In this document: positions 45,061-48,940 of the stretch, one piece after another
How the letters are laid out: each line of letters opens with the position of its first letter
Numbering within the stretch: position 1 is the stretch's first letter
NCBI RefSeq assembly: GCF_018350175.1
Contig: NC_058382.1
Span: forward strand, 50,656,001 to 50,720,000
Source of the DNA: Felis catus
Lineage: Eukaryota
Direction of reading: 5' to 3'
DNA: 64,000 bases
Position numbers and translations under genes: made by a program
Notes under the pieces: model-generated
Told to the model about the DNA's origin: nothing
Database searches by the model: none
The model's input: the letters and a program-made list of their open reading frames with translations, nothing else

Positions 45061-45496
45061 TGATATGCCCCAATTCGAGAGATACCCCGAAAACAAACCA
45101 CCAGAGTCCAGAGTCAAAGCCAAGGGGCAAGGGTCGTTTATTGCAGGTTCGAACCCCGTCCTCCGCGCACTCGTTGCTGGTGACGCTAAGAGGCCCTGAG
45201 CGAGGATCTTACAGCTTCTTTTATAGACAGGTACAAACAAGTTAGGGATTTTTTGTGGTTACAGAGCTGTTATTGGTTGACATTTAAATTTGAACACTCA
45301 GCAGAACTTGATTGGTTCCTGCCTTTTTTTCAAACCACTCAGCAGAACTTGATTGGTTCCCACCTTTAGGTCAGACCACAACCAGGCACGCCCTGGCTGG
45401 TTCCAGGAACAGCGCGGGGGGGGGGGGGGGGGGGGGGGGGCGGGTCTTTTCTTTGCAGTTGTAAGTACACCTGGTAATTTTTCTCTTAGTCTCTTA
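45061..45496 (-). promoter_or_regulatory. 3' LTR (436 bp) with minus-strand TATAAAA, AATAAA and CCAAT boxes
   Basis: Direct repeat of 48564-48940; adjacent PPT AAAGAGAGGGGGGAA at 45497-45511. Confidence 0.95.
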
Positions 45497-45537: not shown

Positions 45538-45925
45538 TTATGTGTCTGACTCAAATGTTTCGGTAATGACGGGTTGATATTGGGTCCTAAGGCCCATCAG
45601 TTGGATTGTGTTAACTCGGTCTTTGATAAAGGCAACTAGTTTATTAATAATATAAGGCCCAAAGGTGAGGAGGAGAAGGAGGAGTATAAGGGGCCCAGCT
45701 AGAACAGAAAGCAGGGTAGCTAGCCACGGGGACTGATTGAACCAAGACTCAAACCAGCCTTGTTGTTGTTCTCGTTCACGCCTCCGTTTGGCCAGGCCTT
45801 CTCTAACTTTAGCCATGGACTCTCGGACTACTCCGGTCTGGTCAGCATAAAAACAACATTCTTCTCTTAAGGCTGCACATAAACCTCCCTGTTGGAGGAA
45901 GACAGGATCTAGGCCCCTTCGGTTC
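45538..45925 (-). pseudogene. env: env TM C-terminal part ([20 protein letters not shown]6[11 protein letters not shown], membrane anchor, cytoplasmic tail), out of frame with SU
   Basis: Gammaretroviral TM motifs; separated from SU by a 2-nt deletion near 45983 and a larger heptad-repeat deletion near 45925. Confidence 0.92.
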
Positions 45926-45947
45926 CTCATCAATGGCTGCCCTTAGG

Positions 45948-47270
45948 CTATTGAACCCCCGCTGCTGGATGACTAGTGATGAGACCTGTTCCTGCCCCTA
46001 TGGTACCGAGGCCAAATAAGGTGGCCAAGGTTATGGCCATAAAGGGTTCCCGTTTTGTTCTTATTGACTCTCTTGCTTCCGTCCCTTCTGTCCACAGATC
46101 ATACACAACATTTTCTTGGTGGTAAATAACCTTTGGAAATACTAATACCATGATACAATATTCGGGTGACGAATTAAAAACATCTCTGCTAACACATGGG
46201 GTGAGCCCTGTCTTAGAACAAATCCACCAACTGTCAGGAGCTGGAATTATCCATTTAGATTCATCTATAGAGTAATTAGTCGGGGCACAGAGCTGGATAT
46301 GGCTAGAGGGGACCTTTCCTATACAAGTCCCATTGCCAGTGACCGCTTGCAGTGTGAGGCCGGGGCCCTTTCGATTCCACTTGCAAGCTGCTGGCGACTC
46401 TTCTCCTGATTGTGAAAAAGGGGCAGCTAGACCTATGGCTTCGTGGAAGGGGGGTTTTATATCATAACATAGCCAGCAGGCCCTTGTTGCCTCAGGGTCC
46501 GACCGGTTTAAGGCCTCATACGCTGCTGTTAGCAATTTCCATAGGGAGTCTATGCCTTCTGGGTTCTGATTTTCTTGGACAGCTTGTGCTTTTACTCCTG
46601 GGGTAAGGAGGTGGGTCCTGCTGGAGGGAGTAGTGGGGATCTGCCTGGGGATAGGCTCGTCTCTTTTTTTATTTTTATTTTTTCCTAATATCTGATTTGG
46701 CCCCACCGGTTGTACAAGAGGGGAGACTTTTAATTTTATTTGAATGGCAGTCCCAAAGAGGGGACGTTGATATAAGTAGAGTCCCCAAGTGAGTCCTAAG
46801 ACCCATCGCCTGTCTTTTTTCCCTTCCTCTGTAAATCTTACACGAATAAGGTTACAGTTTTCATCATACCTGGTGCGGGTACATGGTCGGTCATAGGACA
46901 TTTCAATAAATTGGGGTTTTACTTCCCACTTCCATTCCCCATCATTGGAGGTGATGCAACTCCAGGCTGCACAATAGAGGGTTTCAAACCCTCCACATGT
47001 GCGCCTCATCGCCCCCGTCCTAAATCCCGGACATGCATAAAATCCATTTCTACTTATTGATACCCTCCTTTGCAGTTGCCTCCATTTACCTCCTTCCATT
47101 TCTTCTAATGGACTAACTTTTTCTAAATTAAAGTATAAATCTGGCCACCAGGTATTTAATGGGGCAGTTCCTAGGGTTTTGTTGTAGATTTCATGAGTCT
47201 CTAAGTTAGTAATTTCCCATGTCAAATTATAGGGGGTGTGGGGGTTTGGATTTACAGACAGCTTTCTTGC
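45948..47270 (-). pseudogene. env: env SU reading frame, open but lacking its start codon and signal peptide; RTKR furin site (46050-46061), fusion peptide, premature TAG
   Basis: NPHTPYNLTWEI (PHQ-like motif), APLNTWWPDLY, GFYACPG, WSCITSNDGEWKW, VGPN, CWLC. Confidence 0.92.
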
Positions 47271-47271
47271 T

Positions 47272-48137
47272 TGAACAGGATGCGGAGGAGCTGCTGGCAG
47301 TCGTCCCAGGTGGGCTGGTGGGTGAACATGACACTGTCTAAAAGAGCTATTAGGTCTTTAGGGTTATCAGAGAATCGAGCATTCTGTGTTTTCCAGTTGT
47401 AAAGGTCACTGGTGGAAAAGGGCCAATACTGGAGTCGGAGGTTGCCTGTTTCATCGGGGGGTCCTATTTCCCACAGGGGTAGGGCCACAGTGGAGTCGGG
47501 GAGGCGAGGGTTTGGCTCACGCTGGGTGCGCCCGTGGGTTCGGCCGGCTGGCCCCTTGCGGTTGGTTTTGTTTTCAATGGGGCCCGGCGCGGCTGCTGCC
47601 TCCCGTCCTCCTGGTTCCGGCGCAGCTGCCGCTTCCCCTCCTCCCGGTTCCCCTAGGGGGGCAACTAGCAGGGCGACTGGTGGGGCGGCTGCTGCGGGCA
47701 GTGCCTGGGGTACGAGGGGAGGGGGATGATAGGGTGGAGGGTCTAGGGATAATAGGTCCTGACTATCGGGCAATATGGGATACAAGGGTGTGGCTGGCGT
47801 CCTTGATGTTGGGGGATCTGCAGGCCGCATGGCAAGGACCTTACATGTTCCCAAGGATAGGAAGGGGGCCAACCAAGGGGGTGGATTTTCCACTAAATTC
47901 CACCATACAAGAATGTAGGGAATCGGTAGAAAAATCTTTGATTTCACCTTAGCAATTATAGGGAGGCAGAAAGTTCCTTCGGTTGGCCATCCAGCGCCGA
48001 AGGTTGGCCATTCGGAGCAGCAGAGGGTTATTAATTTTCCCCGCCGGATGTCTAAACTCAAATTCTGTCCTCTGGTTCTAACATCCCTGAAGTTAGCAAC
48101 AAGGAGAGAAAAGAGGAGTGCTTTGAGATTGGCCCAT
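47272..48137 (-). pseudogene. gag: gag (MA, p12 with PPPY, N-terminal CA), frameshifted near codon 9 and truncated in CA
   Basis: ATG GGC CAA (MGQ myristoylation start) at 48137; extra T near 48110; CSEWPTF, PPPY, YWPFSTSDLYNWK, THQPTWDDCQQLL. Confidence 0.95.
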
Positions 48138-48485
48138 CTGTGTCCTGGTAGTGGAGGAAAGGATTAAAAGGAGAAACAGTAAAGTTATGAGGATTTCTGG
48201 CTGGGCCAGGCCAGGTCACCTGTGAAAGGGAAGGAGTTTAACACTTAAAGGTTATAGAATAGAGAACACAACACTTAGATCGCTAGCGCGTTTCAGGTGT
48301 CTGCCACCCAAACAGAAAAATTCTGAAGGGCCCAAAAAGGTGCCCCAGACGGGTGCCAGTGGACATTTCCTACAGGACCGGACCGACTGCCCTATAGCGC
48401 GTCTGCCAGGGCTGTGTCAGTCACCGATACAGACCCCACGCGGGAGAGCCAGAAACGAACAGACAAACAGAAACAGAGCCGGCTC

Positions 48486-48491
48486 ACTTAC
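48486..48491 (-). promoter_or_regulatory. Probable retroviral major splice donor CG|GTAAGT
   Basis: Consensus donor about 50 nt downstream of the PBS. Confidence 0.75.
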
Positions 48492-48543
48492 CGATCGGTC
48501 TCAGGGACGACCCATTGATTTGGGGTCTGGTGGGTTTGGGTGG

Positions 48544-48561
48544 ATCCCGGACGAGCCCCCA
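48544..48561 (-). promoter_or_regulatory. Primer-binding site for tRNA-Pro (TGGGGGCTCGTCCGGGAT)
   Basis: 18/18 match to the MLV/FeLV-type PBS-Pro, 2 nt after the 5' LTR. Confidence 0.97.
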
Positions 48562-48563
48562 AA

Positions 48564-48940
48564 TGATATGCCCCGATTCGAGAGACCCCCCGAAAACAAA
48601 CCACCAGAGTCCAGAGTCAAAGCCAAGCGGCAAGGGTTGTTTATTGCAGGTTCGAACCCCGTCCTCCATGCACTCGTTGCTGGTGACGCTAAGAAGCCCT
48701 GAGCGAGGATCTTACAGCTTCTTTTATAGACAGGCACAAACAAGTTAGGGATTTTTTGTGGTTACAGAGCTGTTATTGGTTGACATTTAAATTTGAACAC
48801 TCAGCAGAACTTGATTGGTTCCCACCTTTAGGTCAGACCACAACCGGGCACACCCTGACTGGTTGTGGTAATGGCGGGGGGGGGGGGGTCTTTTCTTTGC
48901 AGTTGTGAGTACACCTGGTAATTTTTCTCTTAGTCTCTCA
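48564..48940 (-). promoter_or_regulatory. 5' LTR (377 bp)
   Basis: TG...CA termini; TATA box near 48725; followed by the PBS. Confidence 0.95.

Follow-up and report, generated by a model that had tools for sequence, protein, structure and literature searches.

The window analysed here, a 64,000-nucleotide stretch of the cat genome (contig NC_058382.1), contains a 3.9-kb internally deleted class I endogenous retrovirus (ERV) that lies on the minus strand from 48940 down to 45061, inserted in the middle of a SINE with a 4-bp target duplication. The features of this provirus, from its 5′ to its 3′ end, are as follows.

48564..48940, minus strand: 5′ LTR of a class I (gammaretrovirus-like) ERV
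48544..48561, minus strand: primer binding site, read from the sequence, which we take to be of the tRNA-Pro type
48486..48493, minus strand: major splice donor CG/GTAAGT with its GT at 48491-48490; two RNA reads and retrocopy L031 show it in use
48355..48415, minus strand: two GACG-loop hairpins inside the leader intron, presumably packaging-signal-like, placed by folding and copy comparison
48221-48220, minus strand: AG of acceptor 1, kept in 16 of 17 copies, with a counterpart in a sister family and no junction seen
48138..48209, minus strand: 24-codon CUG frame running into gag, read from the sequence and present in 17 of 17 copies
48146-48145, minus strand: AG of acceptor 2, 7 nt before the gag ATG, used in a fossil mRNA (L031)
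48088-48087, minus strand: acceptor 3, inside gag MA, used in two RNA-seq reads from a paralogous copy
47272..48137, minus strand: gag remnant (MA, p12 region, start of CA) with a frameshift near 48110 and a stop at 48095
45538..47260, minus strand: env remnant in two frames, without a start and without a signal peptide of its own
45061..45496, minus strand: 3′ LTR

Most of CA through pol and the start of env were lost by internal deletion, and a large deletion near 47272 cuts the gag remnant; Gag_MA, Gag_p30 and TLV_coat domains are recognisable in what remains. The two LTRs differ at 13 of 345 non-CpG sites, which corresponds to an age of about 10 My at 1.8e-9, a rate taken from the available text of PMC4643047. 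The 3′ LTR also carries a 41-nt duplication-insertion and a longer G run. Because three upstream ATGs precede gag, a frameshift lies near 48110 and most of gag-pol has been lost, the window copy is non-functional on any reading. The poly(A) site of this family was located at 48617-18 within the LTR from the ends of poly(A) reads. In RNA-seq run X24, 133 reads carry poly(A) at this position and 116 reads come into the LTR at 48689 from foreign sequence; a host transcript probably ends in some LTR of the family.

At least 17 close family copies (L001-L017) are present in the genome at 85-100% identity, 16 of them distinct. On C47, copies L012 and L013 face opposite ways with about 90 kb between them and are identical over the 900 nt compared; they are likely a segmental duplication. 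Further groups comprise a five-copy sister family and 16 gamma4-like copies, and one follow-up genome search returned mostly solo LTRs. The nearest database Gags are those of a dolphin (68%) and of Old World monkeys (about 60%); their annotated proteins begin MG and are uninformative on a CUG start. Scans of viral and metagenome contigs gave distant relatives only, with at most 55% identity over long matches.

The initial annotation had placed a splice donor at 48491, an acceptor AG at 48221-48220 and a CTG at 48209 that opens 24 codons to the gag ATG at 48137, and each of these coordinates proved exact. The CTG stands in a strong context (G at -3, G at +4), whereas the gag AUG has C at -3, and the strong-context CTG with its 24-codon frame is kept in all 17 family copies, so that neither the loss of the CUG nor the frame-breaking indels named in the initial annotation as refuting signs occur within the family; the acceptor AG is kept in 16 of 17. 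An in-frame TGA upstream of the CTG, also reported for the window copy, is there at 48218, and is shared by 13 of the 17 copies, not by all. Five codons separate the CTG from a 12-residue hydrophobic core encoded at 48194-48159, and lysine and arginine are absent before this core in 16 of 16 copies. By eye, the extension has the layout of a signal peptide with a 12-residue h-region and a Ser/Thr-rich c-region but no positive n-region. In the window copy, the product of the frame stops at a TAA at 48095, past the frameshift, which is the truncation that had been described. Upstream ATGs, three of which occur in the window copy, are absent in 5 of 16 copies, and none is common to all, contrary to the idea that splicing is needed to expose the CUG.

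The segment that encodes the CUG frame doubles as the branch point and pyrimidine tract of acceptor 2, a site at 48146-45 that the initial annotation had overlooked, so that what was described as a hydrophobic leader is also the 3′ end of an intron. Acceptor 2 has an AG-free zone of at least 50 nt and, in a 40-nt stretch, a pyrimidine content of 80-82%; all 17 copies have yUnAy branch points for it. Acceptor 1, which had been called strong, is pyrimidine-rich as claimed (70-85% in 20 nt), but its AG-free zone is just 21-23 nt and a yUnAy branch point is missing in 13 of the 17 copies. A GT directly follows its AG in most copies of the window and sister families (AG/GT; 48219-48214 in the window), and because of this GT, acceptor 1 could, from its letters, function as a weak donor or in recursive splicing instead of as a plain acceptor.

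The leader intron bounded by these sites is about 350 nt long and contains the two GACG-loop hairpins. Both hairpins form in copy L002, at a z of -1.33 that is not significant alone; the packaging region of the window copy folded no better than shuffles (z -0.09). The second GACG loop, which is decayed in the window copy, overlaps with GDV codons that belong to the region where glyco-gag canonically starts.

Use of acceptor 2 is recorded in retrocopy L031 (G000:C1:83451500-83460500, minus strand), in which the donor is joined directly to this acceptor. L031 starts in R without U3 and has an A-tail inside env. It sits at a TT/AAAA site within an L1 element, between the two copies of a 15-bp target duplication that differ by 1 mismatch. 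It also contains a second, in-frame GT-AG junction that joins gag MA (window 47947) to CA (about 47315). L031 is a processed copy, made by L1, of an mRNA of the window ERV family that had been spliced more than once, and was the sole match in a genome search with the donor-to-ATG pattern. Splicing from the donor to acceptor 2 thus removes the hairpins together with the CUG frame and leaves the gag ATG 7 nt behind the junction. The proposal that a leader splice removes the packaging region is therefore borne out by L031, with the difference that the splice runs to acceptor 2 and not to 48220.

RNA-seq was followed in four of the 24 listed runs, with 1-2% of the two raw-read runs covered. No leader joint appeared at the three-read listing threshold in these four runs. 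Two reads of run X24 connect 48494 to 48087 with one letter between, and are read as a junction from the donor to acceptor 3 in a paralog with a variant donor. The X24 reads over the leader and gag start carry alleles that fit L009 (G000:C27:7709120-7712777) or its subgroup and not the window copy, and related families may be the source of five molecule ends at 48127 in this run. In X5, two contigs that match the window exactly run unspliced across acceptors 1 and 2, at a depth of 4 and possibly from DNA. The evidence for leader splicing thus consists of two reads and one retrocopy, the second junction of which looks cryptic, and both observed leader junctions, at 48145 in the fossil and at 48087 in the reads, drop the CUG, contrary to the mRNA spliced to 48220 that was originally envisaged.

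Such a dedicated mRNA, joining 48491 to acceptor 1, would put the CUG 10 nt past the junction, and the choice of acceptor would switch between signal-peptide-Gag (acceptor 1) and Gag (acceptor 2). The AG of acceptor 1 in 16 of 17 copies, its counterpart 64 nt before the ATG in all five sister copies, and the TGA which, in 13 of 17 copies, shuts the upstream frame immediately behind the AG are what this model would lead one to expect. No donor-to-acceptor-1 reads occurred in the four runs, where the leader depth of about 3-6 in the best raw-read run gives little power and makes their absence weak evidence. The corresponding junction pattern had one match in the genome (L082), which looks unlike the junction. 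With the weak branch-point features of acceptor 1, and with a sister family that retains the site without a CUG frame, we consider a dedicated acceptor-1 mRNA improbable.

The pre-ATG acceptor extends beyond the window family. It was found in 17/17 family copies, 5/5 sister copies and all three of the 16 gamma4-like copies examined. All five sister copies have their CAG at 3 nt from the ATG, their branch point near -27 and the acceptor-1 counterpart at -64; the gamma4-like copies have a fully pyrimidine tract and a CAG at -9. An open frame with a strong-context CTG, GTG, ACG or ATG was found in none of these eight copies (five sister and three gamma4-like); because all eight keep the acceptor without the frame, the acceptor is common to the families but the CUG frame is not. 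In two gamma4-like copies, L026 and L027, a stop codon interrupts the frame 16 codons ahead of the ATG, and none of the 16 gamma4-like copies begins at the acceptor as a spliced copy would. Four of the five sister copies (L020, L022, L023 and L024) have 80-86 open codons in frame with gag, and in the fifth, the stop-broken L019, the gag frame extends back to GDV codons. This long frame, which by eye has no hydrophobic anchor and no strong-context start, is possibly a decayed glyco-gag frame.

The distribution of the acceptor bears on a separate and overlapping question, namely whether the leader splices, that to env excepted, arose cryptically when decayed proviruses were transcribed and had no role in the life cycle of the virus. 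The internal gag junction of L031 has weak-looking sites, the RNA reads use an acceptor that deletes the gag ATG, and splicing after endogenisation was raised by the authors of the ERV-W study in the available part of PMC6995185. Against cryptic splicing, three families whose leaders otherwise diverge each have a pyrimidine tract plus a CAG 3-9 nt upstream of the ATG, in most cases along with a branch point, whereas just 3 of 13 other gammaretroviral sequences have a YAG, and a weak one, in the 20 nt next to the ATG, a comparison set from which a fourteenth, non-retroviral row was dropped. We regard cryptic splicing as an unlikely account of these junctions.

Whether the CUG frame itself looks coding was assessed from its hydropathy and its pattern of change. 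The 12-residue core has a Kyte-Doolittle mean of 3.52, in a window length picked after the sequence was seen, and at most 1 in 10,000 within-block shuffles matched it. Codon position 2 of the core is T in 11 of 12 codons, compared with 3/12 and 4/12 at positions 1 and 3. Among 93 acceptor-like host tracts in 165 kb, a KD12 of at least 3.5 in any open frame was reached by one, a simple repeat, the next best being 3.45, and a KD12 of at least 3.0 by six. By these counts the hydrophobicity exceeds chance; the initial annotation had named a pyrimidine-rich leader as its possible source. Read in the gag frame, the 16 distinct copies differ by 10 synonymous and 9 non-synonymous changes (expected fraction 0.32, p 0.05); the counts for the other two frames of the same segment were 10:28 (Fisher p 0.049 versus the gag frame). 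The shared and likely pre-integration changes were 5:4 (p 0.13), a ratio that resembles the 18:16 (p 0.002) of a gag control. Among the 16 copies, no gap events were found in 82 nt, compared with 11 in 300 nt of gag, an indel test that is marginal with about 3 indels expected in the 82 nt. The substitution counts are small. From these comparisons, the CUG frame shows weak signs of coding constraint, and a CUG-started signal peptide on Gag is plausible.

The same observations have to be weighed against a simpler possibility, that the 72 nt before gag serve the leader intron alone, as its 3′ end, with the hydrophobic frame a product of T/C richness or an untranslated vestige of the ancestral glyco-gag anchor and the CTG incidental. 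Discarding the segment by splicing is the sole use of it that has been shown, the clade as a whole has the acceptor but not the CUG frame, and 6 of 93 host tracts reach a KD12 of 3.0. Furthermore, a Phe-to-Ser change in the core of L011 and L015, with a Leu-to-Ser change in one of them, lowers the core hydropathy to 3.16 and 2.77 and keeps the pyrimidines, so that what these changes preserve is the pyrimidine tract and not the hydrophobicity. A purely splicing role does not readily account for the codon-position periodicity, for a hydrophobicity matched by at most 1 in 10,000 within-block shuffles, or for the combination of the correct frame, a strong CTG five codons before the core, a synonymous excess limited to the gag frame and the lack of indels. 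We give an intron end without a coding role an appreciable chance, somewhat below even.

The reading that we prefer, and that we place only slightly short of an even chance, is that these 72 nt are dual-coded, specifying a signal-peptide-Gag from the CUG on unspliced RNA and becoming the discarded end of an intron when a Gag-only mRNA is made by splicing. The pre-ATG acceptor with its use in L031, a strong CTG that all 17 copies keep, the T at codon position 2, the rarity of such hydrophobicity in host tracts (1 of 93), the synonymous excess, the absence of gaps and the open hydrophobic frame directly ahead of gag in 13 of 13 other gammaretroviral sequences point to dual coding; the absence of the frame in 8 of 8 related copies, the serines in two cores, the shared changes of just 5:4 (p 0.13) and the precedent of KoRV, which has a fuller glyco-gag frame and yet no expression in human cells (PMC4528783, available text), point away from it. 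In this reading, the leader is an intron in which a single donor (48491) serves tandem 3′ splice sites. Splicing to acceptor 2, as recorded in L031, gives a Gag-only mRNA that lacks the hairpins and presumably could not be packaged. On unspliced (or acceptor-1-spliced) RNA, scanning ribosomes would reach the strong CUG first and some would initiate there. Because the CUG can be reached without splicing and the gag AUG has C at -3, leaky scanning past the CUG to the gag AUG could give both products, as in MLV. The CUG product would be Gag with a 24-residue cleavable signal peptide, composed of a short n-region, a 12-residue h-region and a small polar c-region, which would route Gag to the ER for glycosylation and secretion. 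Such a product would be a minimal form of glycoGag that has no cytosolic domain. The window copy itself yields neither product.

The likeness to glycoGag that had been proposed for this locus is partial. The family shares with MLV and FeLV glycoGag, as described in the available text of PMC5120145 and PMC4528783, a putative CUG start and an in-frame hydrophobic N-terminal extension directly before the gag ATG, and the GDV codons of the canonical start region persist upstream in the felid leader. The extension has 24 residues, compared with 88 in glycoGag. LGDVP is the N-terminal motif of glyco-gag (PMC4528783, available text); in the felid family, the GDV codons are found about 165 nt before the CTG, in another frame and in a region that has no CTG of its own. 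A long cytosolic N-terminus with YxxL, present in 4 of 5 exogenous comparison rows, is replaced by five residues before the core, with no Tyr among them. An open hydrophobic frame directly before gag occurs in 13 of 13 other gammaretroviral sequences, in each case with an Arg cluster ahead, whereas the felid core has no K/R before it, and its best 19-residue hydropathy is 1.86-2.31, compared with 2.45-2.77 in the MLV/FeLV rows. Lacking the LGDVP start, the cytosolic YxxL domain and the basic-flanked anchor, the putative felid product falls outside the MLV-type glycoGags. A cleavable signal peptide is a closer likeness for the extension than is a type II anchor, and unlike that of glycoGag, the extension overlies a used 3′ splice site. 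In MLV, SERINC5 antagonism requires the N-terminal 66 residues with YxxL (PMC5120145, available text); because the felid extension has no cytosolic YxxL domain, it is unlikely to antagonise SERINC5 in the same manner.

The second known system that the locus resembles is the pre-gag intron of ERV-W (also HERV9 and HERV30), a GT...AG leader intron exposed by L1-made processed pseudogenes (PMC6995185, available text). The felid family has the same type of GT...AG intron between LTR and gag, with a branch point and pyrimidine tract, and its precise loss in an L1-made pseudogene, in one retrocopy (L031). The ERV-W intron is up to about 2 kb long, compared with about 350 nt here, and the felid intron differs from that of ERV-W in its tandem acceptors and in a 3′ end that carries a CUG frame continuous with gag. 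The arrangement thus combines two known things, a glycoGag-like extension and a pre-gag intron, and is real and conserved within the family. Mouse IAP belongs to a different retroviral class. Its Gag has an N-terminal hydrophobic ER-targeting signal (Ribet et al., as cited in the available text of PMC4643047), which is part of Gag proper, whereas the felid signal would be an optional CUG extension.

Among the felid viruses, the closest comparison is FcERV-gamma4. The gamma4-like copies share the donor motif and the pre-ATG acceptor with the window family, at 68-75% nucleotide identity over the gag start. The FcERV-gamma4 leader is different and longer, as compared by eye with Fig S6 of PMC10878261. 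Identity of the window family with FcERV-gamma4 was rejected, as by eye it has a short common motif alone with the X-region of that figure, which L026 and L027 match instead; by sequence, the window family is a relative of FcERV-gamma4 and not a member. In the same figure, again by eye, the X-region in XR-FeLV clone 10 ends 2 nt past the AG of the gamma4 pre-gag acceptor, and the captured piece therefore includes the full 3′ splice site. Open-access literature listings gave no account of the leader of this family, nor of a CUG signal peptide overlapping a pre-gag acceptor.

Taken at its widest, the interpretation is that an extinct felid gammaretrovirus made the smallest known glycoGag-like product, from a 24-residue CUG signal peptide set in the pyrimidine tract of an acceptor, that leader splicing toggled between genome RNA making secreted Gag and a packaging-free mRNA making virion Gag alone, and that the pre-ATG acceptor is regular in a clade including FcERV-gamma4, whose leader piece recombines into FeLV. 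We put this full picture forward as speculative, and doubtful as a whole.

In the textbook view, simple retroviruses translate Gag from unspliced RNA. The fossil mRNA and the acceptor in three felid families show leader splicing that uncouples the translation of Gag from the packaging region, and thereby extend the unexplained pre-gag intron of ERV-W to another clade. The splicing is the observed part; by it, the old virus may have chosen between ordinary Gag and signal-peptide Gag. If the CUG frame was translated, the family would provide a natural glycoGag without a cytosolic domain, which would part the secreted-Gag role from SERINC5 antagonism. The shared acceptor also offers an idea for the X-region of XR-FeLV, the function of which is called unknown by its authors in the available text of PMC10878261.
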